Counted from the first letter of the stretch, positions 5,443 to 31,775 are shown. The stretch: DNA of 58,824 nucleotides from Telluria sp. (GCA_036405115.1 DASWYE010000055.1:1-58824); one strand, 5' to 3'. Notes: generated from the sequence alone by a model not told the origin. Program-made: numbers and translations.

Positions 5443-6918
5443 ATGCAAAAGACATTGATCGGCCTGATGGTCGCGGCCGCGTTTGCGAGCAGCGCGCTGG
5501 CGGCTTCTCCCAAAGCCAACGAGGCCGCGACCGCCCGCCACTACGCGGAGCTGGTCAAGGCGCAGCCCAACCTGGCCGGCCTGACGATGTTCTTCACCCG
5601 CATGCCGAAGGGCGGCGACCTTCACCACCACTACTCCGGATCGATCTACGCCGAGCAGTACCTGGAGTGGGTCGACAAGATGGGCTACTGCGTCAACAAG
5701 CAGACCTACCGCATCGAGACCGACAAGGCGGTGGTCGAATCGCAGCGCGCACTGCCGGCGAAGGAACGCGTGTGCCTGTCGACCCAGGAGATGATCCGCG
5801 ACGACTACAGCTACCGCGAGATGCTGCAGCGCTGGTCCACCAAGGACTTCAACAACCACGGCGCGAACCAGCCGCCGCCGGACCGTGCCTTCTTCGAGAC
5901 CTTCGGCTACTTCGGCCCGGTGTCGAACTCGAACTTCAACGAAGGCCTGCGCACGCTGAAGCAGCGCGCGGTCGAGGAGAACGTCTCCTACATCGAGACC
6001 CAGTTCAAATCGGCCCCGCTGATCCAGGACACGGCGTGGGACGCGGCGGTGCTGCAGGCCGGCGTGGCCGGCGACGACAAGATGCTGGGCGACCACCTCG
6101 GCGCCTTCGCCGCGAAGCTGGAGCAGGACTCCGCCTTCAATGCCCGCGTCAACGATTTCGTCAACAACGTGAAGGCATCGAGCGCGGGCATCGACGACGC
6201 CAATTTCACGATGCGCTACCAGACCTACGTGCTGCGCCTGCTGCAGCCGTCGCAGGTGTTCTCGTCGATGCTGGGCGCGTTCAAGTCGGCGCGCCAGAGC
6301 GGCGGCCTGATCGTCGGCGTGAATATCGTCGGGGCCGAGAACACCGCGGTGTCGATGCGCGACTACGCCCTGCACATGAAGATGTTCCGCTTCCTGAAGG
6401 CGCAGTATCCGGAAGTGAAGACTTCGCTGCACGCCGGCGAGCTGTCGCTGGGCATGGTGCCGCCGGAAGGGCTGCGCTTCCACATCGACCAGGCCATTCA
6501 CGTGGCCGGCGCCGACCGCATCGGCCATGGCATCGACCTGGCGCACGAGCTGCGCGCGCCCGAGATCATGAAGGCGATGCGCGAGAAGGACATTCCGGTC
6601 GAGATCAACCTGACCAGTAACGAATTCATCAACGGTGTCAGCGGCCAGGACCATCCGATCCTGCTGTACCGCCGCTACGGCGTGCCGTTCGTGATTTCGA
6701 CCGACGATACCGGCGTCACCCGCCACACGCTCACAAAAGAATACGTGCTGTTCGCCAGCCGCTACCAGCCGAGCTACGCCGAAGTGAAGAAGGCCTCGTA
6801 CAATGGCATCCGCTACGCCTTCCTGCCGAAGGCGGACAAGGACCGCCTGACACGCCAGCTGGACCAGCGCTTCGCCAGGTTTGAAGCGGAAATGGCAGCG
6901 TTAGCTGCCCGGAAATAA
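5443..6918 (+). CDS. Secreted/periplasmic adenosine deaminase, ADA2/ADGF-like
   Basis: Sec signal MQKTLIGLMVAAAFASSALA, followed by RMPKGGDLHHH, LHAGE, RIGHG, EINLTSN and STDD deaminase motifs. Starts 10 bp after guaD. Confidence 0.85.
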   Translation: MQKTLIGLMVAAAFASSALAASPKANEAATARHYAELVKAQPNLAGLTMFFTRMPKGGDLHHHYSGSIYAEQYLEWVDKMGYCVNKQTYRIETDKAVVESQRALPAKERVCLSTQEMIRDDYSYREMLQRWSTKDFNNHGANQPPPDRAFFETFGYFGPVSNSNFNEGLRTLKQRAVEENVSYIETQFKSAPLIQDTAWDAAVLQAGVAGDDKMLGDHLGAFAAKLEQDSAFNARVNDFVNNVKASSAGIDDANFTMRYQTYVLRLLQPSQVFSSMLGAFKSARQSGGLIVGVNIVGAENTAVSMRDYALHMKMFRFLKAQYPEVKTSLHAGELSLGMVPPEGLRFHIDQAIHVAGADRIGHGIDLAHELRAPEIMKAMREKDIPVEINLTSNEFINGVSGQDHPILLYRRYGVPFVISTDDTGVTRHTLTKEYVLFASRYQPSYAEVKKASYNGIRYAFLPKADKDRLTRQLDQRFARFEAEMAALAARK

Positions 6919-6949
6919 CCTCGTCGTCCCGGCGACGTTGTAATGACAA

Positions 6950-6980
6950 ACGGCCGCGCAATGCGGCCGTCTTTCCTTTC
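6950..6980 (+). terminator. Probable intrinsic terminator of the xdh-guaD-ada operon
   Basis: Stem-loop ACGGCCGC-GCAAT-GCGGCCGT followed by CTTTCCTTTC. Confidence 0.65.
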
Positions 6981-7229
6981 GGGAAATGTTTGCTGGCGCA
7001 AGCTGTGGCCTGTGCGCGACACAATTTTGCCTTCTTCCCCACCTTTGCTGTTTTTGCCAATGAAAGGATTTCAGCAAACAGGTGCTCATTTATAATCTCG
7101 GCTGGCAGTCTCGACCATAAAAACGCTATATATCCGCGTATTTATATTCCCGCCGACTAAATTCTGAAGGGAAATCGTATTTGTCTCCTATGGCAGGCTC
7201 ATGCATAGTTGACAATCAGGTATTCCCTC

Positions 7230-7247
7230 GTGTCATGGCCTTGACAC
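7230..7247. promoter_or_regulatory. Palindromic candidate operator upstream of the Oar-type TBDT
   Basis: GTGTCA-N6-TGACAC inverted repeat in an AT-rich intergenic region, overlapping a TTGACA hexamer. Confidence 0.3.
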
Positions 7248-7352
7248 ATTGCAAAGCTAGAATCGCACAGCTCTAGCGTGGCCACGGTAGCAACACAGTA
7301 AAGCGGGCGTCTCCCGGCGCCCACCATAACAAGTCTTTTTTGGGGTTATACA

Positions 7353-10300
7353 ATGATCAGTCAAAAACGGATTCAGCTGACCAAGCTGGCGTTGGCGTTG
7401 TCCATCGCGCTCTCCGCAACGCCGTCGTTCGCACAGAACACCACTTCGGCCATCGGCGGCCGCATTTCGGCAGCCGACGGCAAGCCGGCGGCAGGTGCGA
7501 CGGTTTCCATCGTCCACACCGAATCGGGTTCCGTCAGCAACGTCGTCACCGATCCGAATGGCCGTTACGTCGCACGCGGCCTGCGCAGCGGTGGTCCGTA
7601 CACGATCATCATCACCAAAGACGGCGTCACCGAAAAGCGTGAAAACGTCTTCCTGCAGCTGGCTGAAACCGCTTCTGTGGACGCTACCTTGGGTGGCGCT
7701 GCGATCCAGACCGTGACGATCGCGGGCAGCGCCCAGCGTTCGGACGTCTTCTCGCGCAGCACCATGGGCGCGGGCACCAGCATCACCCCGACCGAACTGC
7801 AAGCGCACGCATCGATCAACCGTAACCTGCAGGACTATGCGCGTACCGACCCGCGCGTGTCGCAGACCGACAAGGAACGCGGCGAGATCTCCGTGGCCGG
7901 CCAGAACTCGCGCTTCAACAGCCTGACCATCGACGGCGTGGCCGTGAACGACACCTTCGGCCTGGAAGCAAACGGCAGCCCGACCGCCAAGCAGCCAATC
8001 TCGATCGAAGCGATCCAGTCGGTGCAGATCAACGTCGCCAACTACGACGTGACCCAGAAGGGCTACACCGGCGGCAACATCAATGCCGTCACCAAGTCCG
8101 GTACCAATAACTGGAAGGGCTCGCTGTACTACGTCTTCCGCGACGACAGCCTGGTCGGCGACCGCTTCAATACCCGTACTGAAGAATATTACGAAGTCGC
8201 ACCGTTCAAGGAAGACACCAAGGGCTTCACCCTCGGCGGCCCTATCCTGGAAGACAAGGTGTTCATCTTCGGTAACTACGAAGAGTTCTCGTCCTCGCGC
8301 TCGACCCCGACCTACGGTTCGATCGGCAGCCCGCTGACCAACGTCGGCATCACCCAGTCGGCCATCGCCGGCGCGCAGCAGATCGCACGCGACGAGTACG
8401 GCATGGACATCGGTAGCGAAGGCGTTCCTGCCGGCACCGAAATGATGGTCAAGGATTACCTGGTCAAGCTCGACTGGAACATCAACGACAACCACCGCGC
8501 CAACGTGCGCTTCTCGCGCACCGAGCAGGAAGAGCCGCAGTTCCGTGGCATCTCCCAGAGCGGCATCGCGCTGAGCTCGCACTTCTACCGCGACGTCAAG
8601 AAGATCGACACGATGGTCGGCGAATGGTTCGGCGACTGGACCCCGGACTTCTCGACTGAAGTAAAGCTGTCCAGCCGTAAGTATGACTCCGTGCCAGACA
8701 ACAACGCCCGCCTGCCAGCAATGGCCCTGCGTTTCGCTGGTGCCCTGCCTGACAACGCACCGGCCGGCCTGTCGACCGGTAACCGCTACCTGAACTTCGG
8801 TACCGAATACGCTCGCCAGAACAACGTGCTGGGCACCGACACCCTCGACGCCTACGCCGGCGCGACCTGGGTGCTCGGCCAGCACGAACTGAAGTTCGGT
8901 GCCGACTACAACAAGAACGAGGTATACAACGCCTACCTGCAGAACGTGTTCGGCGACTACACCTTCGGCTGCCGCGATACCAGCGCGACCTACTCGTACG
9001 AATTCAACGGTGGCGCATCGCTCCGCTGCTCCACCGCGACCAACGCGCAAGTTGAAGCGGCAGTGCTGGAAAACTTCCGTCGCGGCCGTCCAGAGACCTA
9101 CCGCGCACAGATCCCGGTCGAAGGCGGCACCCTGTCCGACGCGATCGCCCAGTTCTCGCTGGTCGACACCGGCGTGTTCTTCCAGGACACCTGGGAAGCG
9201 ACCTCGCAGCTGACCATCAACGCCGGCCTGCGCCTGGACTACTCGACCGTGAACGGCCGTCCGAAGCGTAACGACGCTGTGGCGCAGCCTACCGTGGCCG
9301 GCAACCCGGCCACCATGGCGCGCCAGACCGGCGGCTTTGGCCTCGACAACACCAATACCATCGACGGCACCAAGCTGTGGCAGCCGCGCTTCGGCTTCAA
9401 CTACCGCTTCGACCAGGAACGCGCTTCCCAGCTGCGTGGCGGCATCGGCCTGTTCCAGGGCGCGGCGATGTCGGTGTGGATGTCGAACCCGTTCTCGAAC
9501 CCTGGCGTGGCAACCCGCAACATCAGCTGCTCGGGTACCTCGTCGTCGTCCTGCCCGACTACCGATGGCTTCTTCACCGGCAATCCGGACAGCCCACCGA
9601 CCATCGCGTCGGCGGTCCCGGCAGCCAACGTCGACATCCTCGACCCGTCGTTCGAACAGCCGTCGGTGTGGAAAGCCAACATCGCGTTTGACACCGAACT
9701 GCCATGGTACGGCCTGACCTTCAGCACCGAATACCTGCGCACCCAGAACAAGGCAGCGATTTACTACGAGCACCTGAACCTGGGCACCCCGAGCCGTATC
9801 GGCCCGGACGGCCGCCAGATGTTCTACAACGCAGCAGGTTACAACCCTGAATGCTGGAACGAGTTCGGCAATGTCCAGACCAGTGTCTGCACTGGCGCCA
9901 CCCGCGTCACCAACCGCGCGCTGTCGAACCTGGCGTACGACCGTGTGCTGAACGCCAAGACCACCGACAAGGGTGCAGCGAACATCATCACCATGTCGCT
10001 GTCGCGTCCAATGTCGAAGGGCTTCGGCTGGCGCATGTCGTACACCTTCACCGACGCCACCGAAGTGTCGCCGCTGACTTCGTCGACCGCGAACTCGAAC
10101 TGGGCTGGCCGTGCAGTCTTCAATCCAAACGAAGACACCGTCGGCAAGTCGGGCTATGCAGTGAAGGACCGCCTGAACGCGTCCGTCACCTGGCAGAAGG
10201 CATTCTTCGGCAAGTACAAGTCCTCGGTTGGCGTGTTCTACGAAGGCCGTTCGGGCAAGCCGTACAGCTGGACGTTCGAGAACGACATGAACGGCGACGG

Positions 10301-10784
10301 CACCTCGGGCAACGACCTGATGTTCATCCCGTCCGCGTTCGGTTCGGGTGAAGTCGTGTTCTACGGCGACACCGCAACCTCGCACACCAACGAAGAGCGC
10401 TTCTGGCAGTTCATCAACGAGAACAAGCTGGGCAAATTCGCCGGTGGCGTAGCCGAGCGTAACTCGTCGAACTCGCCTTGGACCAACTCGTTCGACCTGC
10501 GCCTGAGCCAGGAAGTACCAGGCTTCATGAGCGGCCACAAGGGTACCTTCGTGCTCGACTTCATGAACGTTGGCAACATGCTCAACAAGCGTTGGGGCCG
10601 TATCAACGAAGTGGGCTTCAGCTCGGGTGGCGGTTTCCCGCGCAGCTTCGTGAACTACGCTGGTATCACTGCTGACAACAAGTACGTCTACGCTGTCGAC
10701 AACACCGTGGAAGAGCTGGTGCTGAAGCAGAACAAGGGCGAATCGCAGTGGGCCATCCAGGCTACCCTGCGCTACGAGTTCTAA
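7353..10784 (+). CDS. Oar-type TonB-dependent outer-membrane transporter with an N-terminal carboxypeptidase-regulatory-like domain
   Basis: Signal peptide; N-terminal Ig-like domain (GRYVARGLRSGGPYTI); plug motifs IDGV, GGNINAVTKSGTN and QPRFGFNY; C-terminal RYEF; 1143 aa. Confidence 0.93.
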   Translation: MISQKRIQLTKLALALSIALSATPSFAQNTTSAIGGRISAADGKPAAGATVSIVHTESGSVSNVVTDPNGRYVARGLRSGGPYTIIITKDGVTEKRENVFLQLAETASVDATLGGAAIQTVTIAGSAQRSDVFSRSTMGAGTSITPTELQAHASINRNLQDYARTDPRVSQTDKERGEISVAGQNSRFNSLTIDGVAVNDTFGLEANGSPTAKQPISIEAIQSVQINVANYDVTQKGYTGGNINAVTKSGTNNWKGSLYYVFRDDSLVGDRFNTRTEEYYEVAPFKEDTKGFTLGGPILEDKVFIFGNYEEFSSSRSTPTYGSIGSPLTNVGITQSAIAGAQQIARDEYGMDIGSEGVPAGTEMMVKDYLVKLDWNINDNHRANVRFSRTEQEEPQFRGISQSGIALSSHFYRDVKKIDTMVGEWFGDWTPDFSTEVKLSSRKYDSVPDNNARLPAMALRFAGALPDNAPAGLSTGNRYLNFGTEYARQNNVLGTDTLDAYAGATWVLGQHELKFGADYNKNEVYNAYLQNVFGDYTFGCRDTSATYSYEFNGGASLRCSTATNAQVEAAVLENFRRGRPETYRAQIPVEGGTLSDAIAQFSLVDTGVFFQDTWEATSQLTINAGLRLDYSTVNGRPKRNDAVAQPTVAGNPATMARQTGGFGLDNTNTIDGTKLWQPRFGFNYRFDQERASQLRGGIGLFQGAAMSVWMSNPFSNPGVATRNISCSGTSSSSCPTTDGFFTGNPDSPPTIASAVPAANVDILDPSFEQPSVWKANIAFDTELPWYGLTFSTEYLRTQNKAAIYYEHLNLGTPSRIGPDGRQMFYNAAGYNPECWNEFGNVQTSVCTGATRVTNRALSNLAYDRVLNAKTTDKGAANIITMSLSRPMSKGFGWRMSYTFTDATEVSPLTSSTANSNWAGRAVFNPNEDTVGKSGYAVKDRLNASVTWQKAFFGKYKSSVGVFYEGRSGKPYSWTFENDMNGDGTSGNDLMFIPSAFGSGEVVFYGDTATSHTNEERFWQFINENKLGKFAGGVAERNSSNSPWTNSFDLRLSQEVPGFMSGHKGTFVLDFMNVGNMLNKRWGRINEVGFSSGGGFPRSFVNYAGITADNKYVYAVDNTVEELVLKQNKGESQWAIQATLRYEF

Positions 10785-10808
10785 GCTGATTAGCATTCGC
10801 GCAACATG

Positions 10809-10839
10809 AAAAAAGCCGGTGGCAACACCGGCTTTTTTT
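10809..10839 (+). terminator. Strong (bidirectional-type) intrinsic terminator
   Basis: AAAAAA-GCCGGTG-GCAA-CACCGGC-TTTTTTT. Confidence 0.9.
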
Positions 10840-10923
10840 ATGGCAAGTCCGTGCGCCCGCCAGTCGACTTTATGCGGTCGGGATGCTGCGCCGGACGTGC
10901 TACATCGGTTATCCTAAGCAACT

Positions 10924-12606
10924 ATGAATCCAATCCTCAAGCAGTTCTCCATCATCGTCACAGCCAGCATCGCGCTGGCCGGTTGCGCGAGCGCGCCCCA
11001 GGCCCCGATTGAAATCAACCTGGTTGCCATGAACGACTTCCACGGCAACCTCGAGGCGAGCAAATTCACCCACGCCGGCCCGGACGGAAAACCGGTGACG
11101 GTGCAGGCGGGCGGCATCAGCGCCGTGGCCGCCGCGGTGCATGCCTGGCGCGCGCAGGACCCAAACCTGGTGCTGGTCGGCGCCGGCGACCTGGTGGGCG
11201 GCACGCCGGCCATGTCGTCGATGTGGAATGACGAGCCGACCATCAATGCACTGAACCTGCTCGGCATGAATTTCAGCTCGGTGGGCAACCATGAATTCGA
11301 CAGCGGCCGCATCGAACTGCTGCGCAAGCAGCATGGCGGTTGCGAGACCCCGCGCGCGGACAAGGCCTGCAAGCTGGCGCCTGACTTCAGCGGCGCCAGA
11401 TTCCAGTACCTCGCCGCCAATGTGATCGACAAGGCCACCGGCAAGCCCTTCCTGCCTGCGTGGCGCATCGAGGAAGTACGCGGCGTGAAGATCGGTTTTA
11501 TCGGTGCCGTATTGAAGGGAACGCCCGAACTGGTGCTGGCCTCCGGCATCGAGGGACTGGCATTCCAGGATGAGGCGACCGCGATCAACCGCGTGCTGCC
11601 CGAAGTGCGCGCCGCCGGCGCCACTGTGTTCATCGTGCTGATCCACGAAGGCGGCACCACCAGGGAGCCGTACCACAAGCAGGACTGCAGCGAACTGGCC
11701 GGCCCGATCGTCGATATCACCAAGAAGCTTGACCCGGCCGTGCGCCTTGTGGTCAGTGGCCACACGCACCGCGGCTACCAGTGCAAGGTCGATGGCCGCA
11801 CCGTCACCCAGGCTGAGTATGCGGGCCACATGCTGTCGCGGATCAAGCTGACCGTGGATCCTTCCACCCGCGCACTGCAACACGTCGAAACGAACAACGT
11901 CGTTGTGAAGGTCGGTGATTTCCCGCAGGTGCAGGCGGTGGCCGATTACCTCGCGACCGTCAAACAGCGCAGCCAGGCAGCGCTGGCCCGGCCGGTCGGA
12001 CGCATGGCGGTGCGCAGCATCGACCGCCGCCTCGACCCGGCCGGCGAATCGCCGCTGGGCGGCATCGTCGCCGATGCGGTCTGGTTCGCGACCAGGCAGC
12101 AGGGTGCCGACATTGGCCTGATCAACACTGCCGGCGTGCGCAAGGACCTGGAATCGACCGCCGACGGTACCGTGACCTATGGCCAGGCACAGGCGGTCCT
12201 GCCCTTCAATAACACGCTGGTGGTGATGGAACTGACCGGCAAGCAGCTGGTGGAGATGCTCGAGATGCAATGGGCGCGCGAAGGCGTCGACGCACGCCAT
12301 TCGATGCTGCAGGTGTCGAAGAACTTCAGCTACCAGTGGGACAGCGAGCGTCCGCGCGGCGCGCGCGTGGTGCCGGGCAGCGTGCTGCTGAATGGCCAGC
12401 CGATCGTCGCGGACAAGGTCTACCGCGTGGCGGCCAACAACTTCCTCGCCGAAGGTGGCGATGGCTTCCCGATTTTCACCAAAGTGCCCAAGCGCGACAC
12501 GCAGGTCGTTGACATCGACGCGTTCATTGGCTTCCTGGCCAAGGGCGAACTGGCGCAGCCGGCCGCGTTTGCCGCGCCGGCCAAGCGCATCGTGCGCGTG
12601 AAATAA
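10924..12606 (+). CDS. Lipoprotein 5'-nucleotidase (UshA-like metallophosphoesterase plus 5'-nucleotidase C-terminal domain)
   Basis: Lipobox LAGC; motifs NDFHG, AGDLVG, GNHEFD, IHEG, SGHTH, LPFNN and EGGDGF. Confidence 0.92.
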   Translation: MNPILKQFSIIVTASIALAGCASAPQAPIEINLVAMNDFHGNLEASKFTHAGPDGKPVTVQAGGISAVAAAVHAWRAQDPNLVLVGAGDLVGGTPAMSSMWNDEPTINALNLLGMNFSSVGNHEFDSGRIELLRKQHGGCETPRADKACKLAPDFSGARFQYLAANVIDKATGKPFLPAWRIEEVRGVKIGFIGAVLKGTPELVLASGIEGLAFQDEATAINRVLPEVRAAGATVFIVLIHEGGTTREPYHKQDCSELAGPIVDITKKLDPAVRLVVSGHTHRGYQCKVDGRTVTQAEYAGHMLSRIKLTVDPSTRALQHVETNNVVVKVGDFPQVQAVADYLATVKQRSQAALARPVGRMAVRSIDRRLDPAGESPLGGIVADAVWFATRQQGADIGLINTAGVRKDLESTADGTVTYGQAQAVLPFNNTLVVMELTGKQLVEMLEMQWAREGVDARHSMLQVSKNFSYQWDSERPRGARVVPGSVLLNGQPIVADKVYRVAANNFLAEGGDGFPIFTKVPKRDTQVVDIDAFIGFLAKGELAQPAAFAAPAKRIVRVK

Positions 12607-12615
12607 GGAGTCCGC

Positions 12616-13845
12616 ATGCGCCGCTACCTGCTTGGCCTGCTCGCCTTCCTGGCCGGAAGCGCGCAGGCGCAATTCGCGATTCCCGGCTACGAGCTGGTCC
12701 AGACCGCGCCGGTCGAGACTACGCTCGCCAGCAGCGACTTGCGCGACCCGGTTACCGTATGGTCCGGGATGTTCGACACCGCCCGCGAGGAAATCGTGAT
12801 CGGCCAGTTCTATGCGGCCAGCCGCGCCGGCACGCCGTTCGACAAGGTGATGCAAAGCCTCGCCGCGGCGGGCGCGCGTGGCGTCAAGATCCGCTTCCTG
12901 CTCGACAAGAAGGGCGTCGGCATTTCCGAACCGGAGACACTGGAGCAGCTGCGCAAGATTCCCAACCTCGAACTGCGCGTGCTCGATTACTCGCAGCTGA
13001 CCGGCAATGGCATCATCCACGCAAAGTACCTGGTGGTGGACCGCAAGGCCGCCTTCGTCGGCAGCCAGAACTTCGACTGGCGCGCATTCACGCACATCCA
13101 CGAGACCGGCCTGCGCATCACCGATCCGGCCATGGTGGCGCAGGTGCTGGCCATCTTCGAGAAGGACTGGACCGCGCAGGGCCAGCTCGCCGCTGGCGTG
13201 AAGCTCGCGCCGATGGCGCCGGCCAGCCTGGCGCCTGCCACGATTGGAGAGAAGCAGCTGCTGGCCAGCCCGCACGGCATGAACCCGGCCGGCGTCGCCG
13301 ATTCCGAAGCCGCGCTGCCCGCACTGCTGGCCGAAGCGAAGAACGAGATCCGCATCCAGGTGCTCGACTACGCGCCGCTCAGCTACGGTCCCAACGGCAC
13401 ACGCCCGTACTACGGCGTGATCGACAATGCGATCCGTGCCGCGGCGACCCGCGGCGTCAAAGTGAAGCTGCTGGTGTCGAACTGGAATACCGAGAAGCCC
13501 GCGATCGCCTACCTCAAGAGCCTGTCCCTGGTGCCGAACGTGGAAGTGAAGATCGTCACGCTGCCGCAAGCATCGGAAGGCTTCATCCCGTTCGCGCGCG
13601 TCATCCACAGCAAGACCATGGTCATCGACGGCAAGACTGCGTGGATCGGCACGAGCAACTTCGCCGGCGGCTATTTCGACAAGTCGCGCAATCTCGAAGT
13701 GGTGCTGCGCAACGAAAAGATGGCGCAGCGCGTTCTGCAATCGCAGGACCAGGTGTGGAACTCGCAGTACGCCGCCCCGATCGATGTCAGCAAGGATTAT
13801 CCGAAGCCGAACAAAAGCGGCCAATCACCCAAGTCCAAGGAATAA
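12616..13845 (+). CDS. Secreted PLD-superfamily enzyme, PLD3/PLD4/vaccinia-K4-like (probable nuclease)
   Basis: Signal peptide ending AQA; two HKD motifs, IHAKYLVVD...GSQNFDWR and IPFARVIHSKTMVID...IGTSN; AGGAG RBS. Confidence 0.85.
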   Translation: MRRYLLGLLAFLAGSAQAQFAIPGYELVQTAPVETTLASSDLRDPVTVWSGMFDTAREEIVIGQFYAASRAGTPFDKVMQSLAAAGARGVKIRFLLDKKGVGISEPETLEQLRKIPNLELRVLDYSQLTGNGIIHAKYLVVDRKAAFVGSQNFDWRAFTHIHETGLRITDPAMVAQVLAIFEKDWTAQGQLAAGVKLAPMAPASLAPATIGEKQLLASPHGMNPAGVADSEAALPALLAEAKNEIRIQVLDYAPLSYGPNGTRPYYGVIDNAIRAAATRGVKVKLLVSNWNTEKPAIAYLKSLSLVPNVEVKIVTLPQASEGFIPFARVIHSKTMVIDGKTAWIGTSNFAGGYFDKSRNLEVVLRNEKMAQRVLQSQDQVWNSQYAAPIDVSKDYPKPNKSGQSPKSKE

Positions 13846-13848
13846 GCA

Positions 13849-14904
13849 ATGAAGAAACTCGCATGCGTGCTGGCGTTGGCCAGCGCATTTGCCGCCACCA
13901 ATGCCCACGCGTGGGGCAACGACGGCCACCGCGCGGTGGGCGCCATCGCCGACAAGCTGCTCAAGGGCACCAACGCGCAGAAGCAGCTGGCCGCGATCCT
14001 GTTCCCGGGCGAATCGCTCGAGTCGATCGCCAACTGGGCCGACTGTGTCAAGGGCACCTACTGCGGCCCGCAGACCCCGGAGATGGTCGGCTACGTGGAA
14101 GCCAACCCGAAGCACGGCACCTACCACTACACCGACGTGCCGTTCCAGCACAGCCACTATGAAGACGGCGCGCCGGGCGCGTTCGAGGACGACATCGTCC
14201 AGACCCTGAAGCAGGCCATCGCAGTGCTGCAAGGCAAGGCCGACCAGGATCCGTCCCTGAACCCGCACAAGTTCACCAAGCGCCAGGCGCTGATGCTGCT
14301 GGTGCACATGACCGGCGATATCCACCAGCCGCTGCACGTGGGCGCGGCCTACGTCGGCAAGGACGGCAAGTTCACGATCCCGAAAACGCACCACGATATC
14401 GATACGGTCAACATCTTCGATTCGCGCGGCGGTAATAATTTCCTGCTGGACGAAGGCAAGGTCGCCGCGATGGACGCGGCGCACATCCCCGGCCAGCCGC
14501 GTCCGGTGAAAGAGGGCGTGCCACGTGCGCTGACCAAGCCGTTCCACTCGTACTGGGACACCACCGTGGTCGACTACGCGATGCGCCGCAGCAGCACCAA
14601 AACGCCGGACCAGTTCGCGCAATATGCGATCGACAGCAAGCCGACTGTTGCCGCCAACACCGGCGAACCGGTGACCTGGCCGTACCAGTGGGCCAACGAT
14701 GCGCTGGCCCAGTCGAAGGTGGCGTACGCTGACGTGGTGCCGGGCCCGTTCCAGCAGCAGGTCAGCCGCAAGGGCGAAACCTACTACACCTGGTCGCTGG
14801 AAGTGCCGCAGGACTATCCGGTGCCAAGCTCCGCGCTGGCACGCACGCAACTGATCAAGGGCGGCTACAACCTGGCTGCCGTGCTGAAGGCAATTTTCCC
14901 TTAA
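13849..14904 (+). CDS. S1/P1 nuclease
   Basis: Signal peptide cleaves at AHA|WGNDGH, exposing the N-terminal Trp zinc ligand. WAD, YHY, HMTGDIHQPLH and HSYWD zinc-ligand motifs are all present. Confidence 0.93.
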   Translation: MKKLACVLALASAFAATNAHAWGNDGHRAVGAIADKLLKGTNAQKQLAAILFPGESLESIANWADCVKGTYCGPQTPEMVGYVEANPKHGTYHYTDVPFQHSHYEDGAPGAFEDDIVQTLKQAIAVLQGKADQDPSLNPHKFTKRQALMLLVHMTGDIHQPLHVGAAYVGKDGKFTIPKTHHDIDTVNIFDSRGGNNFLLDEGKVAAMDAAHIPGQPRPVKEGVPRALTKPFHSYWDTTVVDYAMRRSSTKTPDQFAQYAIDSKPTVAANTGEPVTWPYQWANDALAQSKVAYADVVPGPFQQQVSRKGETYYTWSLEVPQDYPVPSSALARTQLIKGGYNLAAVLKAIFP

Positions 14905-14914
14905 GGAGACCGAC

Positions 14915-15733
14915 ATGCGCTACCCGACGACTTGCATCCTGATGTGCGCAGTCGTCGGGGCGCAGGCCAGCGCCGCCCCCACGCTGCCGCTGTGGGAGGC
15001 CGGCGTCATCGGCGGGGCTGTCTCCATGCCCGCCTATCCTGCTTCTTCAGACCGCTCCACCCGGGGCATCGTTTTTCCCTACCTGATCTACCGCGGCAAG
15101 GTGTTCCGCTCCGATGAATCCGGCCTGCTGGCGCGCATCCTGCGCACCGAACGGATGGAGCTGGACATGGGCTTCGCCGCGTCGCTGCCGGCCCGTTCGG
15201 GAAGCATCGACGCGCGCGCGGGCATGCCGAACCTCGGTGCGCTGGGCGAATTCGGTCCGCGCCTGAAGGTCAAGGTCGGCGATGTCGCCACCACCAAAGT
15301 CCTGTTCGAACTGCCGGTGCGCACCGTGATCGAGGCGCGCGGCGGCCTGCGCCAGCGCGGCTGGACCGCCGAGCCGCGCCTGTCCTGGAGCACCGAGGAC
15401 GAAACCCGCCGCCTGTCGATGGGCACCAACTTCAGCGCCTTGTTCGGCGACCGCTCGATCAACCGCTATTTCTACGAGGTCGAGCCGCAGTACGCAACGG
15501 CCACACGCCCCGCCTATGCCGCGGACAGTGGATTGATACTGCTGCGCCTGGGCGCGAGCGCCAACTACAAGCTGACGCGCGACCTGCGCCTGTACGGTTA
15601 CGTGCGAGCAGAGAGCTACTCCCGCTCCGCCAACCGCGACAGCCCACTGCACCTCAAGTCCACCGGCTACTCGGGCGGCATTGCGCTCGCATGGATCATG
15701 GCGCGCTCGAAGCGGCCTGCAGCGGCTGACTGA
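14915..15733 (+). CDS. MipA/OmpV-family outer-membrane protein
   Basis: Motifs LPLWEAG, PAYPAS, PYLIYRG, ARAGMPNL and YFYEV; signal peptide; AGGAG RBS directly after the nuclease stop. Confidence 0.8.
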   Translation: MRYPTTCILMCAVVGAQASAAPTLPLWEAGVIGGAVSMPAYPASSDRSTRGIVFPYLIYRGKVFRSDESGLLARILRTERMELDMGFAASLPARSGSIDARAGMPNLGALGEFGPRLKVKVGDVATTKVLFELPVRTVIEARGGLRQRGWTAEPRLSWSTEDETRRLSMGTNFSALFGDRSINRYFYEVEPQYATATRPAYAADSGLILLRLGASANYKLTRDLRLYGYVRAESYSRSANRDSPLHLKSTGYSGGIALAWIMARSKRPAAAD

Positions 15734-20356: not shown

Positions 20357-21325
20357 TCAGCGGGATTTGACGAACGGTTTGCCAATCGCCTTTGGCGCCA
20401 CCGACTTGGCCATCAGGCCGGCCAGAACCACGACCGTGACCACGTACGGGATCATCTGGATCAGCGACCCCGGGATGCGGCCGACAACCGGCAGATCCAC
20501 GCCTTCCATCTGGATCTGCAGCGCGCTGAAGAGGCCGAACATCACGCAGCCCAGCGCCGTGTACGCAGGGCGCCAGTTACCGAACACCATGGCCGCCAGC
20601 GCAAGATAGCCTGCGCCTGCGGACATGTCGCGCAGGAAGAAGCCGCTCTGCACGATCGACAGGTAGGCGCCCGAGAACGAGCACAGCACGCCGGCGATCA
20701 GCATGGCCATGTAGCGGGTGCGCGCCACCGACACGCCGGCAGCATCGGCCGCGTGTGGATTCTCTCCGCAGGCGCGCAGGCGCAGGCCGAAGCGCGAGTG
20801 GTAGATCACCCAGTGCACCACCGGGATCAGCAGGAAGGCGAGGTAGGTCAGCACCGAGTGCCCGCCCAGCACGCTGCCGTAGAACCAGCCGACGAAGGGG
20901 ATGTCGCGCAGCGCTTCGGTGCCCGGCAGGACGATGTCGAACAGGCGGTACTCGCCCAGGTCCGGCGTGCGGCCGCCCTGCTGGAAGAAGTACTGCGCCA
21001 CCACGAAGGTCAGGCCGCTCATGGCGATGTTGACCGCGATGCCGGCGACCAGCTGGTTGCCCTTTTGCGTGATGCTCACAAAACCCTGCAGCAGCGCGAG
21101 CGCGGCCGAGACGGCAATGCCGGCGGCGATGCCGGCCCACGGATCCTGGAAGGTGTAGGCGACGGCGGCCGATGCGAACGCGCTGGCCAGCATCTTGCCT
21201 TCGAGGGCGAGGTCGATCACGCCGCTGCGTTCGGCGAACAGGCCGGCCATCGCCGCGAACAGCAGCACCGGTGCATTGCGGATGGTCGATACGACCATAC
21301 TGGAGAACTGGAAGTCTTCGAACAT
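20357..21325 (-). CDS. Nucleoside ABC transporter permease 2
   Basis: ERSGVIDLALEG, GLRLRACGENP, GYLALAAMVFGNW and MIPY motifs. Confidence 0.93.
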   Translation of the reverse strand: MFEDFQFSSMVVSTIRNAPVLLFAAMAGLFAERSGVIDLALEGKMLASAFASAAVAYTFQDPWAGIAAGIAVSAALALLQGFVSITQKGNQLVAGIAVNIAMSGLTFVVAQYFFQQGGRTPDLGEYRLFDIVLPGTEALRDIPFVGWFYGSVLGGHSVLTYLAFLLIPVVHWVIYHSRFGLRLRACGENPHAADAAGVSVARTRYMAMLIAGVLCSFSGAYLSIVQSGFFLRDMSAGAGYLALAAMVFGNWRPAYTALGCVMFGLFSALQIQMEGVDLPVVGRIPGSLIQMIPYVVTVVVLAGLMAKSVAPKAIGKPFVKSR

Positions 21326-21328
21326 GGC

Positions 21329-22411
21329 TTATCCTTTCCGGCGCAGGTTGATCGCCTTCATGATCGCGGGCGCGTACAGGTTTTCCATCGCGCCGCAGAA
21401 CAGGATGATCAGGCCCTGGATGAAGATGAAGGTCTCCTGCGGGATATTCGGTTTTTCCAGCGACAGGTCGAAGCCGCCCTGGATCAGCGCGCCGAACAGC
21501 ACTGCGGACAGGAAGATGCCGACCGGGTGCTGGCGCCCCATCAGCGCGATGGCGATGCCGACGAAGCCGGCGCCGGCCGGGAAGTTCAGGCTCAGGTAAT
21601 GGGTCGAGCCGAGGATCGAGTTGACCGCTGCAAGGCCCGCCAGCGCGCCGGAGATCAGCATGGCGACGATGATCATGCGGCTGATCGACACGCCCGCGTA
21701 GTGCGCCGCATCCTGGTTCAGGCCCGTGGCGCGCAGCTCATAGCCCCAGGACGAACGCCACACCATCACGCCGTAGATTGCCAGCGCGGCGATCGCCAGC
21801 AGGAAGCCGATGTTCAGCGGAGTGTCGCCCAGCACCGGGAACAGCGTATTCAGGCGCGGCATGAAGGCCGCCTCCGCGAACACGCGGCTGGCTGGATTCT
21901 GTTCACCTTCGGGGATCATCTTCAGGATGAAGAAGTTCATCAGGCTCGCGGCGATGAAGTTGAACATGATCGTGGTGACCACGATGTGGCTGCCTCGACG
22001 CGCCTGCAGCCAGGCCGGCAGCCATGCCCATAGCGCGCCGAACAGCGCGGCGCCGATCATCGCTACCGGGATCAGGATCCAGGCGGGCAGGGTGGCGTCG
22101 AACGACAGCATGGCCAGCGTCAGGCCCAGGCCGCCGATGTACATCTGGCCCTCGGCGCCAATGTTGAACAGGCCCGCCTTCATGGCGATCGACACCGCGA
22201 GGCCGGTAAAGATGAAGGTCGAGGCGTAGAACAGCGTGTACGACAGGCCTTCCGGATTGATGATCGCGCTGTTGATCAGGATCTGCATCGACTCGACCGG
22301 GTCCTCGCCCAGCAGGTGGATGACCAGCGCGGCCACCAGCAGCGCCGAGACCAGGTTCAGGAGGGGCAGGGCAAACGCCGTGGCCCAGCGTGGGAGCTCA
22401 GTCTTTTTCAT
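21329..22411 (-). CDS. Nucleoside ABC transporter permease 1
   Basis: AGLFNIGAEGQ, VVTTIMFN, GYELRATGLN and GFVGIAIALMG motifs. Confidence 0.93.
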   Translation of the reverse strand: MKKTELPRWATAFALPLLNLVSALLVAALVIHLLGEDPVESMQILINSAIINPEGLSYTLFYASTFIFTGLAVSIAMKAGLFNIGAEGQMYIGGLGLTLAMLSFDATLPAWILIPVAMIGAALFGALWAWLPAWLQARRGSHIVVTTIMFNFIAASLMNFFILKMIPEGEQNPASRVFAEAAFMPRLNTLFPVLGDTPLNIGFLLAIAALAIYGVMVWRSSWGYELRATGLNQDAAHYAGVSISRMIIVAMLISGALAGLAAVNSILGSTHYLSLNFPAGAGFVGIAIALMGRQHPVGIFLSAVLFGALIQGGFDLSLEKPNIPQETFIFIQGLIILFCGAMENLYAPAIMKAINLRRKG

Positions 22412-23937
22412 GATGTGTGCATGCCTCCCATCAGGAGGCCGATGCGGGTGGTATCGAATTCTTCAATTTTGAGTTCGCCGGTAATGCGGCCGCCGGACAT
22501 GACGATGATGCGGTCGGCCAGCGCGCGCACTTCTTCCAGTTCCACCGATACCAGCAGGATGCCGACGCCGTCGTCGCGCATCTTGAGCAGCTGGGTGTGG
22601 ATCGACTCGATGGTGCCGATGTCCACGCCGCGGGTCGGCTGGCCGACCAGCATCAGCTTCGGCCCGGCCGCGACTTCGCGCGCGATCACGACCTTCTGCT
22701 GGTTGCCGCCCGAGAGCAGGCCGATGCGCAGGTCCGGATTGTTCGGGCGTACGTCGAAGGCCTTGAGCAGGCCGGCGCAGCGCGCCTTGATCGCCTTCAG
22801 GTCGAACAGGCCCCAGCGGTTCTTCACTTTGTCCTGGTAGCCGAACACGGTGTTCTGCTCGACCGAGAAATCCTTGATCACGCCGTCGCGCAGGCGGTCT
22901 TCCGGCACGTGGCCGATGCCCAGCTGGCGGAATACCTTCGGCAGGCCGTCCGGATCATGGCGGCCGGCGAACGGCAGGTCCTTGCCGAGGAATTTCGCGC
23001 GCCCCGCCGACGGCAGGCGCATGCCCGACAGGATCTGCATCAGCTCACTCTGGCCGTTGCCGGAGACGCCCGCGATGGCGACGATTTCGCCGGCGCGCAG
23101 CGAGAACGAGATGTCGTCGAGCTGCTTGACGCCCTGCGAATCGACCAGGCCAAGCTGGTCCACTTCCAGCAGCACTTCGCCCGGGTTGTAGGGCGCGCGC
23201 GGCAGTTCGTTCCGGATCGGGCGGCCGACCATCAGGCTCGCCAGTTCTTCCTTGGAGGTGCTGGCCGTCTGCACCGCGCCGGCGACGCGGCCGGCGCGCA
23301 TCACGGTCACCTCGTCGGTGATCTCCATGATCTCGCCCAGCTTGTGCGTGATGAGGATGATGGTCTTGCCCTGCTCCTTGAACAGGCGCAGGATGTCGAA
23401 CAGCGACGCGGTCTCCTGCGCGGTCAGCACGGCGGTCGGCTCGTCGAGGATCAGGATGTCGGCGCTGCGGTAGATCTGCTTGAGGATCTCGACGCGCTGC
23501 TGGGCGCCGACCGACAGGTCCTCGATCTTTGCCAGCGGGTCGAGCTGCAGCTTGTAGCGCTCGCAGATCTCGCGCAGCTTGCGTTCCACTTCGCCGCGCT
23601 GCTTCGACAGCTGGAAGCCGCCTTCGCTGCCCAGCATGACGTTGTCCAGCACCGTGAAATTCTCGACCAGCATGAAGTGCTGGTGCACCATGCCGATCCC
23701 CAGTTCGATCGCCTCATGGCTGTTGCGGATGGTGCGGTGCTGGCCGTCGATGAGCACATCGCCGCTGTCGGCATGGTAGTAGCCGTACAGGATGCTCATG
23801 AGGGTTGACTTGCCCGCGCCGTTCTCGCCGATCACGCCATGGATCGAGCCCTTGGCAATCGAAAAGCTGACGTCGGCATTCGCTTGCACGGCCCCGAAGG
23901 CCTTGCTGATCTTGCGAAATTCAACAGCTGGCTGCAT
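22408..23937 (-). CDS. Nucleoside/sugar ABC transporter ATP-binding protein (two NBDs)
   Basis: Walker A GENGAGKST, ILILDEPT, LSGGNQQK and QPTRGVD. Likely start is ATG 23937 (MQPAVEF). Confidence 0.95.
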   Translation of the reverse strand: MQPAVEFRKISKAFGAVQANADVSFSIAKGSIHGVIGENGAGKSTLMSILYGYYHADSGDVLIDGQHRTIRNSHEAIELGIGMVHQHFMLVENFTVLDNVMLGSEGGFQLSKQRGEVERKLREICERYKLQLDPLAKIEDLSVGAQQRVEILKQIYRSADILILDEPTAVLTAQETASLFDILRLFKEQGKTIILITHKLGEIMEITDEVTVMRAGRVAGAVQTASTSKEELASLMVGRPIRNELPRAPYNPGEVLLEVDQLGLVDSQGVKQLDDISFSLRAGEIVAIAGVSGNGQSELMQILSGMRLPSAGRAKFLGKDLPFAGRHDPDGLPKVFRQLGIGHVPEDRLRDGVIKDFSVEQNTVFGYQDKVKNRWGLFDLKAIKARCAGLLKAFDVRPNNPDLRIGLLSGGNQQKVVIAREVAAGPKLMLVGQPTRGVDIGTIESIHTQLLKMRDDGVGILLVSVELEEVRALADRIIVMSGGRITGELKIEEFDTTRIGLLMGGMHTS

Positions 23938-23958
23938 AAGAAGATCTTCTTGTAATTG

Positions 23959-23997
23959 AAACGCGCCGCCGGGCATTCAAACCCGTGCGGCGCGTTT
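23959..23997 (-). other. Intercistronic stem-loop after the substrate-binding gene
   Basis: Hairpin AAACGCGCCGC-CGGG...CCCG-T-GCGGCGCGTTT, at a position typical of mRNA-stabilising or attenuating hairpins in ABC operons. Confidence 0.6.
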
Positions 23998-24013
23998 GGA
24001 AAGTGCTTAAAAA

Positions 24014-25012
24014 TCAGACCGGGCAGCTGTTCGCGGCACGGTAGTCGATGACCTTGATCTTGCCGCTGATGATGCCGGCCTTGGCTTCATTGACGCGCTT
24101 CTCGATTGCCGGGGTGACCACGGCGCGGTTGTTCTTGTCCAGCGCCCAATCCACGCCGCCTTCCTTCAGGCCCTTGTAAGTGACGCCCGGCTTCCAGCTG
24201 CCGTTCTTCACCTGCATGAAGGAGTCGTACACCGCCACGTCCACGCGCTTGACCATCGAGGTCAGCATGGTGCCCGGGTGCAGGTGGTTCTGGTTGGAGT
24301 CGACGCCGATCGCCAGCTTGCCTTTTTCCTTGGCCTTCTGGAGTGCTCCCAGGCCCGAGCCGCCAGCAACCGCGAACACCACGTCGGCGCCGCGGTCGAA
24401 TTGCGCGCGCGCCAGCTGGCCGCCCTTGGCCGGGTCGTTCCAGGCGGCGGCAGTCGTGCCCACCATGTTCTGGATGACGTCGATCTTCGGCACCACCGAT
24501 TTCGCGCCCTGCGCGTAGCCGCACGCGAACGCGCGGATCAGCGGAATGTCCATGCCGCCCACGAAGCCGAGCTTCTTGGACTTGGACGCCATCGCGGCGG
24601 CGACGCCGACGATGTAGGAGCCTTCTTCTTCCTTGAACATGATCGAGTTGACGTTCGGGCTCTTGGCCACGGCGTCGATCAGCACGAATTTCACGTTCGG
24701 GAATTCCTTCGACACCTTCTGCACGGCCTGCGCCTGCGAGAAGCCGATCGCCGCGATCAGGTCGACCTTCTTGCGCGCCAGTCCGCGCATCACCTGCTCC
24801 GACTGGGTGTCCGACGAGGCCTGCACTTCCATGAACGAAATGCCGGTTTCCTTTTTGAAGCGCGATGCGCCTTCAAACGCCGATTCGTTGAACGACTTGT
24901 CGAACTTGCCGCCCGCGTCGTACACGATTGCCAGCTTCGGCGGAGTCGCCGCTGCAACGGTGCCGGCCGCGCACAGGGCCGCGATGGTGATGCTCAGATG
25001 CTTGAATTTCAT
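24014..25012 (-). CDS. BMP/PnrA-family nucleoside-binding protein
   Basis: GGKFDKSFN, FKEEEGSY, GFVGGMD, AIGVDSNQ and TSMVKRVD; Sec signal without a canonical lipobox. Confidence 0.92.
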   Translation of the reverse strand: MKFKHLSITIAALCAAGTVAAATPPKLAIVYDAGGKFDKSFNESAFEGASRFKKETGISFMEVQASSDTQSEQVMRGLARKKVDLIAAIGFSQAQAVQKVSKEFPNVKFVLIDAVAKSPNVNSIMFKEEEGSYIVGVAAAMASKSKKLGFVGGMDIPLIRAFACGYAQGAKSVVPKIDVIQNMVGTTAAAWNDPAKGGQLARAQFDRGADVVFAVAGGSGLGALQKAKEKGKLAIGVDSNQNHLHPGTMLTSMVKRVDVAVYDSFMQVKNGSWKPGVTYKGLKEGGVDWALDKNNRAVVTPAIEKRVNEAKAGIISGKIKVIDYRAANSCPV

Positions 25013-26089: not shown

Positions 26090-26254
26090 TTTTACTTTCC
26101 GTTACGTGATCAATCAGGGTGTCGCGATGGCGCAACAGCCGGGAACTGCACAAATTGGAAGTGGACGACTATGCAACAGCCTTGTTCCGGATGACAAATA
26201 CGTTTTTGCTTGGCGTTTTATTTGTTCTGAAAATAAATACGAAGGTGTCTTAAC

Positions 26255-28809: not shown

Positions 28810-28838
28810 GGGGTCAGTCGCCTGCGGCAACAGACCCC
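28810..28838. repeat. GGGGTC...GACCCC palindromic element overlapping the xapR 3' end
   Basis: GGGGTCAGTCGCC-TGC-GGCAACAGACCCC; related to the copies at 55175-55419. Confidence 0.6.
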
Positions 28839-29755
28839 ATCACCGGTAGCTGGGGCGCCTGCGGATGCAGGATGTTGAGGAAGGCGCGCACCACCGGCGC
28901 GTCATCCAGCGCGGCGTAGCAGATGTACAGGTTGGCCGACGGCGGATTGGTTTTGATCTGCAGGAAGGTCACGCCCGGCCAGCCGATCCGGCTGGTGGTC
29001 TCGGGCATCAGCGCCACGCCCAGGCCCGCACCCACCATCGCCAGCAGCGTCTGCGGCTCGGTCGCTTCCTGGAACACGCTCGGCTGGAAGCCGGCCTTGA
29101 CGCAGCAGTCGAGCAGGTAGCGCGGCTCGGCCGCCGACTTGTCCAGCGTGAGCGTGAGCATCGGCTCGTTGGCAATGTCGATCAGCTCGATGCCGCTGCG
29201 TTCGGCCAGCGGATGGCGCGAGTTCACCGCCACGCATACGTTCTCGCGGAAGCACAGTTCCTGGCGCAGGTTGTCGCGCTTGAGTTCTTCTTCGTCCAGT
29301 TTCGGCTCGCGCCAGAAGCCGACATCGATCTGCTTGGCCCGCAGCGCTTCGTATTGCGAAGTCGGCGAGGACTCGTGCAGGGTCCACGTCACCTGCGGGA
29401 ACTTGGTCTGGAATTCTTCCAGCATGCCCGGAATCGGGCCCCACATCGCGGAGCCGACAATCCCCACGCGCAGGCGGCCCACTTCGCCGCGGTCGATCTG
29501 GCGGATGGTGTCGATGGTCATGCGCATGCGGGCCAGGATATCGGCCGCTTCGGTCATCAGCGCCTTGCCGGCCGCGGTCAGCTCGAAGGTGCGGGTGGTG
29601 CGCGCGAACAGGCGCACGCCCAGTTCCGCTTCCAGCTTCATGATCTGCTGCGACAGCGGCGGCTGCGAGATGTGCAGCTTTTCGGCGGCGCGGCTGAAGC
29701 TCTTTTCCTCCGCGACGGCGAGGAAGTATTTCAGTTGTTTGAGGTCGATCGACAT
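28814..29755 (-). CDS. xapR: LysR-family regulator, XapR-like
   Basis: LysR HTH (YFLAVAEE...SQPPLS). GIVGSAMWG, EPQTLLAMV and WPGV are XapR-like, and the gene is linked to xapA. Confidence 0.8.
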   Translation of the reverse strand: MSIDLKQLKYFLAVAEEKSFSRAAEKLHISQPPLSQQIMKLEAELGVRLFARTTRTFELTAAGKALMTEAADILARMRMTIDTIRQIDRGEVGRLRVGIVGSAMWGPIPGMLEEFQTKFPQVTWTLHESSPTSQYEALRAKQIDVGFWREPKLDEEELKRDNLRQELCFRENVCVAVNSRHPLAERSGIELIDIANEPMLTLTLDKSAAEPRYLLDCCVKAGFQPSVFQEATEPQTLLAMVGAGLGVALMPETTSRIGWPGVTFLQIKTNPPSANLYICYAALDDAPVVRAFLNILHPQAPQLPVMGSVAAGD

Positions 29756-31710: not shown

Positions 31711-31775
31711 ACCCATCTGTTATTGCTTGATAAGCGCAACAATACGCTCATTTATAGTGTTTGGCTATAAATCAG

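Follow-up and report, generated by a model that had tools for sequence, protein, structure and literature searches.

Extracellular DNA and RNA are large pools of phosphorus and nitrogen in soil, and the only route through a TonB-dependent transporter (TBDT) that we found in print belongs to the Bacteroidota. It is encoded by ddbABCDEF of Bacteroides thetaiotaomicron, a DNA-utilisation locus resembling the polysaccharide-utilisation loci, PULs (bioRxiv 10.1101/2025.03.18.642099; PMC12478041, available portions); for Pseudomonadota the portion of the preprint available names only a pilus route. 'DNA-degradation loci' of Ca. Izemoplasmatales were likened to PULs by their authors (PMC8289736, partial text), Vibrio cholerae scavenges phosphate from extracellular DNA by secreted nucleases, UshA, CpdB and PhoX (PMC4714964, abstract), and PhoB of Caulobacter controls TBDTs thought to import phosphate donors (PMC11208175). 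Here we analyse a window of 58,824 nucleotides from Telluria sp. (GCA_036405115.1, DASWYE010000055.1:1-58824), one contig of a 78% complete soil-bacterium genome, with Telluria, Pseudoduganella and Massilia records as its nearest named relatives. It carries, in this order, genes for an exported deaminase of the adenosine deaminase family (ADA), a TBDT, a lipoprotein 5'-nucleotidase, a protein of the phospholipase D family (PLD) and an S1/P1 nuclease (Table 1). The TBDT gene stands behind operator sequences kept in related genomes, in a slot which is filled there by either of two non-alignable TBDT subfamilies; the transporter would, as we rather expect, import nucleotides and short oligonucleotides for digestion in the periplasm.

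The likeness to Ddb, as far as the text available goes, lies in a TBDT beside exported nucleases, a PUL-like logic, deamination of the products and mutually exclusive subtypes at one site. The differences are in phylum and in enzymes, which here are of the S1/P1, PLD3-like and UshA-type kinds. While Ddb includes DdbD, the present TBDT is flanked by ADA and nucleotidase and has no DUF5689 match. Between the Ddb subtypes there is homology (about 25-50% identity), and according to the same portion they may be substitutions of the whole locus, whereas here only the TBDT reading frame is exchanged and the promoter is kept. DNA is described there as a poor sole source of carbon, nitrogen or phosphorus for B. 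thetaiotaomicron; here the Pho and XapR-type boxes predict nutritional use. PF25183, the barrel family of the window's TBDT, has matches in the B. thetaiotaomicron control genome, in a gene carrying no name.

Canonical PULs combine SusC/SusD with glycoside hydrolases, whereas no SusD, no carbohydrate-active enzyme family and no NCBIfam SusC match for the TBDT was found here. PULs are also co-regulated; the TBDT operator is shared with ATP-binding cassette (ABC) transporter and deo operons, yet a terminator precedes the enzyme genes. In Vibrio, nucleases and periplasmic nucleotidases likewise free phosphate and nucleosides and are partly induced by phosphate limitation, but the abstract names no TBDT, whereas here a TBDT is linked to clustered genes, of which S1/P1 could supply the 3'-nucleotidase role. 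The Izemoplasmatales loci share co-located nucleases, phosphohydrolases and nucleoside ABC transporters with the window, but use other nuclease families, and the partial text (PMC8289736) mentions no TonB-dependent transporter. The sequence-only reading, made before any search, knew of no characterised betaproteobacterial example of this composition. PUL-like loci for nucleic acids were already described in Bacteroidales; for Pseudomonadota our literature search, which covered main texts and few subscription journals, returned no description of this type of locus, of a substrate for these TBDTs or of the swap.

A transporter slot with two occupants

The locus was followed through 60 genomes of the genus, drawn regardless of its presence. 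ADA, TBDT, nucleotidase and S1/P1 genes, with or without PLD, are adjacent in 59 of them, the remaining one ending at a contig edge, and such recurrence shows that the arrangement is not due to chance; the conserved synteny looked for in the sequence-only reading was thus found. S1/P1 is present in 60/60 genomes. Around it, the TBDT is in 41 loci of the kind found in the window and in 16 a different one of ~800 aa. The former (CarboxypepD_reg, plug and PF25183 barrel, about 1100 aa, C-terminal Phe) we take to be Oar-type, a label carried over from the first reading of the 1143-aa protein. Both types are TBDTs; between them pairwise BLAST gave no significant similarity, with best E values of 0.24 (Telluria 800-aa) and 0.03 (Collimonas). 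Genome-wide, the Oar type is present in 43 and the ~800-aa type in 17 of the 60 genomes, each once; none of the 60 has both or neither.

On a tree of the flanking genes the TBDT type changes at least 14 times (500 shuffles: mean 18.6, minimum 12) and hence tracks descent weakly. The exchange takes place under one promoter, the XapR-type and Pho motifs described below preceding whichever TBDT is present. In place of the fixed, dedicated transporter of the sequence-only reading, the locus has a swappable slot. A second lineage shows this exchange at another site, where an Oar-type gene (L089) or an 800-aa-type gene (L074, L076, L077) stands beside a divergent nucleotidase gene; these loci share the nucleotidase and downstream genes at 79-97% identity together with parts of the intergenic DNA. 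Phage pressure or differing cargo lengths are our guesses at the cause. No solved relative of the Oar-type TBDT was found, that of the ~800-aa type was weak, and matches in the Atlas carried generic TBDT names only.

PLD has a different distribution. A search anchored on it gave 39 loci, most in the same gene order; this search selects for PLD, and the universal five-gene block it seemed to show was dropped as biased, since PLD is present in 4 of the 60 unselected genomes. Only two of the 60 loci contain it, one with each TBDT type, and PLD is accordingly accessory, the core of the locus being, by gene content, TBDT, nucleotidase and S1/P1. Presence of PLD changes once on a 77-tip tree of flanking genes (midpoint root), consistent with one loss. 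It can hardly be the needed step of a closed route from polymer to nucleoside that had been proposed.

Oar-type TBDTs occur in 56 of 401 Pseudomonadota genomes sampled. We counted 55 loci (the truncated L111 was left out; L105, with poor gene calls, was scored as neighbourless), and in 31 a gene of nucleotide catabolism or uptake lies within two genes and 4 kb of the TBDT. There are at least ten different partner sets: PpnN in 9 loci, NupC in 7, cdd-deoA with a RutR-type regulator and an EEP protein in 5, and elsewhere S1/P1, nucleotidase, AMP nucleosidase, uridine or thymidine kinase, NPP or endonuclease I. In the window's own Oar clade 11 of 12 loci are linked in this way. Under one fixed library rule, 34/55 Oar loci scored; of the other TBDTs that this genome encodes beyond the window, 1/13 did. 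This is a contrast and not a statistical test, because the Oar loci were themselves the source of the library, several of the contigs used as controls are short, and related loci do not count as independent.

For the ~800-aa type, seven of eight matches in the same sample lie beside PLD, nucleotidase, NPP phosphodiesterase, an EEP protein or a xanthine/uracil permease. The Collimonas group has a unit tonB-TBDT800-exbB-(nucleotidase)-PLD with no S1/P1 nearby; tonB-TBDT800-exbB-PLD recurs in three genomes of another family and one of yet another, and a Chimaeribacter plasmid carries exbD-tonB-TBDT-exbB-PLD. A Sphingomonas plasmid has PLD with no adjoining TBDT.

Two observations concern Oar-type alleles elsewhere. 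At one site beside agmatine deiminase and carbon-nitrogen hydrolase genes, ten loci (L097, L099, L102, L122, L123, L128, L130, L132, L135, L137) from three alphaproteobacterial-level families carry alleles from several clades; a fixed slot with allele turnover is seen here for the second time. The Oar-type TBDT at L105:8331-11489, from an alphaproteobacterial-level genome, shares 74-78% identity with those of L106 and L107 from a gammaproteobacterial family; transfer or bin contamination are possible reasons.

Control region of the transporter gene

Twenty aligned ADA-TBDT intergenic regions keep their conserved blocks under both TBDT types. They include a XapR-type operator and a predicted Pho box (Table 1). 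A 46-bp XapR-type matrix was built from relatives, with the own site and the nearest relative excluded, and used to scan 2.68 Mb. Three strong matches were returned, upstream of the TBDT gene (61.2 bits), the nucleoside ABC genes and the xapA-deo genes, the next reaching 11.7 bits, and the -10 CATAGT is common to all three promoters. The candidate activator, a XapR-like LysR protein encoded in the window, scores over the NF007439 cut-off and is present in 60/60 genus genomes; xapA is over the TIGR01699 cut-off.

For E. coli XapR two sites are reported, one of them overlapping the -35 (PMC7205307, partial text). When the matrix was applied to a 7.6-kb E. coli xap region (NZ_CP051706.1), the yfeN-xapA intergenic DNA was the top match (24.0 versus 6.4). 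As far as the E. coli source goes, the likeness extends to XapA, a 38%-identical LysR protein and a two-site promoter with one site over the -35; the E. coli operator heads xapAB, whereas here it precedes the TBDT gene, the genes of an ABC transporter and a complete deo operon. The top E. coli match lies on the strand facing yfeN. The operator layout can be seen on both strands of the intergenic DNA (L146:3270-3364), which suggests that this OmpK-family gene is also activated by XapR.

The Pho matrix was made from the sites of 12 relatives, again without the own and nearest ones. In a whole-genome scan it ranked the site upstream of the TBDT first (31.2 bits) and one 75 nt before the pstS ATG second (26.2 bits); phoB is on the pstS contig. 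The third of three matches of at least 20 bits (C163:1106) precedes a small open reading frame (ORF) of no known kind. The TBDT site is an 11-bp direct repeat standing 10 nt ahead of its -10, as at pstS. A spacing of 10 nt between Pho box and -10 is the rule.

Upstream of the TBDT, the XapR-type motif was found at 25 bits or more in 57 and the Pho box at 15 bits or more in 58 of 59 genus genomes, one of which was also in the training set. The Massilia-group Pho matrix gave 4-19 bits in Collimonas tonB regions and 2-7 bits in Pseudomonas/enterobacterial regions, and the XapR-type motif was not found in either. We predict from these motifs that PhoB, under phosphate starvation, and the XapR-like LysR protein, responding to a purine nucleoside signal, activate the TBDT gene.

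Further conserved elements upstream are TGTGGC-N6-GCGACA (window 7004-7021) and TGAAA-N3-TTTCA (7060-7073). In xapA (window 31761-32744, + strand) the TTG at 31761 lies inside the operator, and translation probably starts at the ATG at 31906.

Enzymes, predicted route and alternatives

Each of the four enzymes has intact catalytic motifs. Those of the deaminase (DLHHH59, HAGE330, GHG361, TDD420) are retained in 29/29 loci. It scored 59 bits against the ADGF model TIGR01431 (cut-off 315), and its predicted structure, of middling pLDDT (66.8), gave a best query TM of 0.51 to a chimeric ADGF and 0.37-0.46 to the others listed; it may belong with the ADA2/ADGF deaminases and would act on adenosine or AMP. 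The nucleotidase has metallophosphoesterase and 5_nucleotid_C domains and a GNHEFD motif. NCBIfam 5'-nucleotidase models outscore CpdB models, all below cut-off, and with 144.7 bits against the UshA equivalog NF007109 (cut-off 600) it is, by these scores, a member of the family and not a UshA orthologue. S1/P1 reached 102 bits against PF02265 (cut-off 29.5), matched SmNuc1 (8QJL, E 4e-11) and has the motifs of a trinuclear Zn site (W22, H27, D65, H93, H153, D157, H163 region, H233, D237). SmNuc1 cleaves RNA and DNA and is also a fast 3'-nucleotidase (PMC11705217, partial text).

The nearest PDB structure to PLD is SpPLD of Serratia plymuthica (7E0M, E 1e-153), followed by PLD3 and PLD4 (E 1e-32 to 1e-30); the remaining matches are poxvirus K4/F13-type proteins and NucT, and neither Streptomyces PLD nor human PLD1/2 was among those at E<=0.001. 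PLD shares with this group, as far as the sources show, two HKD motifs, a conserved Glu, the base-stacking aromatic position and a soluble exported form. The Glu lies 28 residues past the first His and the aromatic residue five ahead of the second: among H135, E163, F326 and H331, the H135..E163 spacing equals PLD3 H201..E229, E163 maps to E229, and F326 sits at the position of the base-stacking Y411, both PLD3 residues being described in PMC10783504 (partial text). Both HKD motifs were found in 66/66 loci and IP[FY]ARVxH in 64/66. PLD3/4 differ in being glycosylated acid enzymes, with a likeness of about 30%. The available part of the SpPLD paper (PMC8004604) describes a positively charged, nuclease-like pocket ill-suited to acyl chains and results without an activity assay. 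A bacterial SpPLD/PLD3-like member assayed as a nuclease was not found in the literature search. 'Lysosome-like enzymes', as the set had been called, suits only PLD, which is close to lysosomal PLD3/PLD4; the deaminase is no more than a possible member of the ADA2 group.

In the route we propose, the TBDT would carry nucleotides and short oligonucleotides into the periplasm, where S1/P1 would yield nucleoside 5'-monophosphates (5'-NMPs) and strip 3'-phosphates; PLD, where present, would act as a 5'-exonuclease releasing 3'-NMPs. The lipoprotein nucleotidase, together with S1/P1 and PLD, would free nucleosides and phosphate, and the exported deaminase would convert adenosine to inosine. Uptake of the products would fall to the Bmp ABC transporter and Pst, and their further use to the island's xapA-deo, xdh-guaD and pyrimidine operons; the TBDT gene would respond to PhoB and to the LysR protein. 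First cuts could be made by a secreted-looking non-specific endonuclease encoded separately on contig C18; endonuclease I was not found in the 78%-complete genome. The general idea of the sequence-only reading, scavenging of nucleic acids in the envelope to feed the nucleoside ABC transporter and catabolic operons, gains support from synteny, the shared operator, the Pho box and the nucleotide neighbours. That the cargo derives from nucleic acids, as polymer fragments or as monomers, we hold to be highly probable; the fuller proposal of nucleotide and oligonucleotide import, periplasmic digestion to nucleoside and phosphate and the two-fold control is in our estimate moderately probable.

The nucleases might instead act outside the cell, by type II secretion, in vesicles or on the surface, leaving the TBDT to admit monomers only (nucleotides or nucleosides) with high affinity, as an energised counterpart of Tsx/OmpK. 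This would suit the closest distant relatives, which adjoin PpnN, NupC, cdd-deoA and uridine kinase, all monomer-handling, the OmpK-family gene that lies divergent from xapA in E. coli, where the same operator is found, the probable transcription of the TBDT apart from the enzymes, and the separate endonuclease on C18. The Pho box on the transporter, however, fits a phosphate-bearing cargo better, and the ~800-aa type runs in the same direction as tonB-exbB-PLD even in places with neither S1/P1 nor nucleotidase nearby, which suggests a cargo in which phosphodiester bonds remain; we regard a monomer gate as unlikely, if worth keeping in mind. It is quite improbable that PLD is a true phospholipase or general phosphodiesterase in a broad PhoB-controlled organophosphate scavenger, with nucleic acids as one substrate. 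SpPLD was deposited as a phospholipase, a Pho box is present, phytase-like and phosphoesterase genes stand beside PLD in two genomes, and the Caulobacter PhoB regulon joins TBDTs with enzymes for nucleic acids and phospholipids (PMC11208175), but the pocket described for SpPLD, its publication with no assay in the part available, the company of PLD among PDB structures and the XapR-type operator linking the TBDT to nucleoside genes all argue otherwise.

A very improbable reading is that the genes are merely clustered in an inherited purine/pyrimidine island, the TBDT serving an unrelated cargo such as an amino sugar or polyamine and being swapped under phage pressure alone. Phage selection would indeed produce receptor swapping, genus synteny is mostly descent, and L085 and the ten agmatine-context loci are in its favour; yet the operator is shared with nucleoside operons, both TBDT types independently adjoin nucleotide genes in other families, and a second lineage shows the Oar/800-aa exchange too, at another site next to a nucleotidase. 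We give hardly any credence to a locus for uptake of transforming DNA or for destroying incoming foreign DNA: the Bacteroides Ddb transporter is, in the available text, related to the Riemerella transformation system, and PLD scores weakly, under cut-off, against models of DISARM DrmC and NucT, but no DdbD-like DNA-binding partner and no competence gene is in the locus, its predicted regulation is nutritional, and no phage record carries PLD.

Several points weigh against import of oligonucleotides for periplasmic digestion. The operators were found only for the TBDT and bear on it, not on the enzyme genes, from which it is divided by a terminator and which seem to own a promoter; in three Pseudoduganella-group loci a 5.2-kb opposite-strand insert separates TBDT and nucleotidase. 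One of the twelve column-permuted Pho matrices equalled the observed three matches at 20 bits (ten gave none and one gave one). PLD is lacking in 58/60 genus loci, no TBDT lies beside PLD in 5 of 12 genomes of the phylum sample, and synteny inside one genus mostly reflects descent. The neighbour contrast has the limits given above; 24 of the 55 Oar loci have no nucleotide neighbours, ten of them lying beside agmatine deiminase, and a 55%-identical Oar TBDT (L085:8249-11680) stands among GHL10, MFS, BadF-kinase and amidase genes and may have been turned to amino sugars. PLD3-type enzymes favour 5'-OH ends and handle poorly the 5'-phosphates that S1/P1 leaves, and hence one would hardly act directly on the products of the other in sequence; given these preferences PLD would deal with 5'-OH fragments in a parallel branch, its 3'-NMPs being cleared by S1/P1, which fits its being dispensable. 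Finally, we infer every enzyme activity, the cargo, the compartment and regulator binding from sequence.

We suggest tentatively, and short of calling it probable, that Pseudomonadota have an undescribed, pilus-independent way of eating nucleic acids, in which both TBDT subfamilies import oligonucleotides and replace each other as cassettes behind a promoter that answers to both PhoB and XapR, while lysosomal PLD3/PLD4 have a bacterial periplasmic counterpart in the SpPLD group. If true, a cargo would be proposed for two orphan TBDT subfamilies, a substrate class would be assigned to a transporter family of 56/401 sampled genomes, and the solved 'phospholipase' 7E0M could be re-read as a likely PLD3-type exonuclease. 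The locus makes such a route testable in culturable Massilia-group strains, and the natural swap of two non-alignable transporters behind one promoter would be useful for studying cargo specificity and receptor turnover.

Transcription units and neighbouring genes

The five consecutive plus-strand ORFs are where the sequence-only reading had put them, with Pfam families that agree with its labels; the gaps of 9 bp (nucleotidase-PLD) and 3 bp (PLD-S1/P1) were confirmed, and each N-terminus looks by eye like a signal peptide, the nucleotidase having a lipobox LAGC at 18-21. Contigs from public runs span the ADA-TBDT, TBDT-nucleotidase and nucleotidase-PLD (run X1, which may be the source sample) and PLD-S1/P1 (run X9) junctions; among the public runs listed, none with RNA contained the locus. 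The genes do not appear to form a single unit. As ada begins 10 bp past guaD and ends 434 bp before the TBDT gene, it is likely part of the xdh-xdhC-guaD unit, and a one-operon reading of the rest was rejected on the strength of the TBDT terminator and the -10-like hexamer ahead of the nucleotidase. Probably there are three units, xdh-guaD-ada, TBDT and nucleotidase-PLD-S1/P1-mipA. Terminator hairpins follow either TBDT type in most of 28 relatives folded; the generic promoter and terminator scan did no better than shuffles and overlooked the TBDT terminator.

Table 1. Positions of features discussed, counted from the first nucleotide of the window
Feature	Position	Strand	Basis and remarks
Exported deaminase (ADA) gene	5443..6918	+	491 aa; PF00962; end of xdh-xdhC-guaD-ada run
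Terminator-like hairpin 3' of ada	6950..6978	+	weak; whole scan count 10 vs 10.5 in shuffles
Conserved TATAAT, -10 of predicted first promoter	7091..7096	+	alignment of 20 upstream regions
XapR-type operator and promoter of TBDT gene	7140..7209	+	ATTTATA-N9-TATAAAT-type palindrome; second box overlaps -35 TTGTCT (7181); 17 nt; -10 CATAGT (7204)
Predicted Pho box TGTCAT-N5-TGACAC, 10 nt, -10 TAGAAT	7231..7263	+	alignment and matrix
Oar-type TBDT gene, swappable slot	7353..10784	+	1143 aa; CarboxypepD_reg, plug, OMP_b-brl_4; single copy
Intrinsic terminator hairpin with U-tract, 3' of TBDT	10809..10839	+	folding: z -7.3, 0/200 shuffles
-10-like TATCCT, 8 nt 5' of nucleotidase ATG	10910..10915	+	conserved; predicted promoter of enzyme genes
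Lipoprotein 5'-nucleotidase gene (UshA/CD73 fold)	10924..12606	+	560 aa; PF00149, PF02872; PDB matches
Exported two-HKD PLD gene, SpPLD/PLD3/PLD4 group, accessory	12616..13845	+	409 aa; two PLDc domains
Exported S1/P1 nuclease gene	13849..14904	+	351 aa; PF02265; mature W1 = residue 22
MipA/OmpV-family outer-membrane protein gene	14915..15733	+	PF06629; 10 bp 3' of S1/P1
Nucleoside-type ABC transporter genes (Bmp binding protein, ATPase, two permeases)	20357..25012	-	predicted same regulon as TBDT
Second XapR-type operator/promoter, 5' of transaldolase-like and ABC genes	26169..26238	-	47.6 bits
XapR-like LysR regulator gene, candidate activator	28814..29755	-	38% identity to E. coli XapR, E 2e-61
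Third XapR-type operator/promoter, 5' of xapA-deoB-deoC-aldehyde dehydrogenase-deoA-cdd	31750..31825	+	29.9 bits

The tight run extends beyond 14904 with mipA and, after 6 bp, an alpha/beta hydrolase gene; mipA follows S1/P1 inside the fetched stretch in 55/60 genus loci but does not do so in most Duganella/Pseudoduganella loci. The opposite-strand insert of the Pseudoduganella group (L014:3530-7865, L016:3519-7857, L018:3511-7867, - strand) encodes a RimK/MvdD-type ATP-grasp ligase, a 440-480-aa protein and a C39-peptidase ABC exporter, and looks like a graspetide-type cluster for a ribosomally synthesised and post-translationally modified peptide.

The wider island is one of purine, pyrimidine and nucleoside catabolism, with xdh-xdhC-guaD upstream and, downstream, the Bmp-type ABC transporter, a second TBDT, the LysR gene, psuG/pfkB, the xapA-deo operon through cdd and reductive pyrimidine genes. 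The ABC unit is headed by a transaldolase-like gene (window 25049-26089, - strand) which seems degenerate and divergent, with 46-60% identity to relatives. On the other side of the operator at 26238, and pointing away from the ABC unit, stands the gene for the second TBDT (window 26383-28683, + strand); this TBDT is a conventional one of 766 aa, is retained in relatives and may serve nucleoside import.

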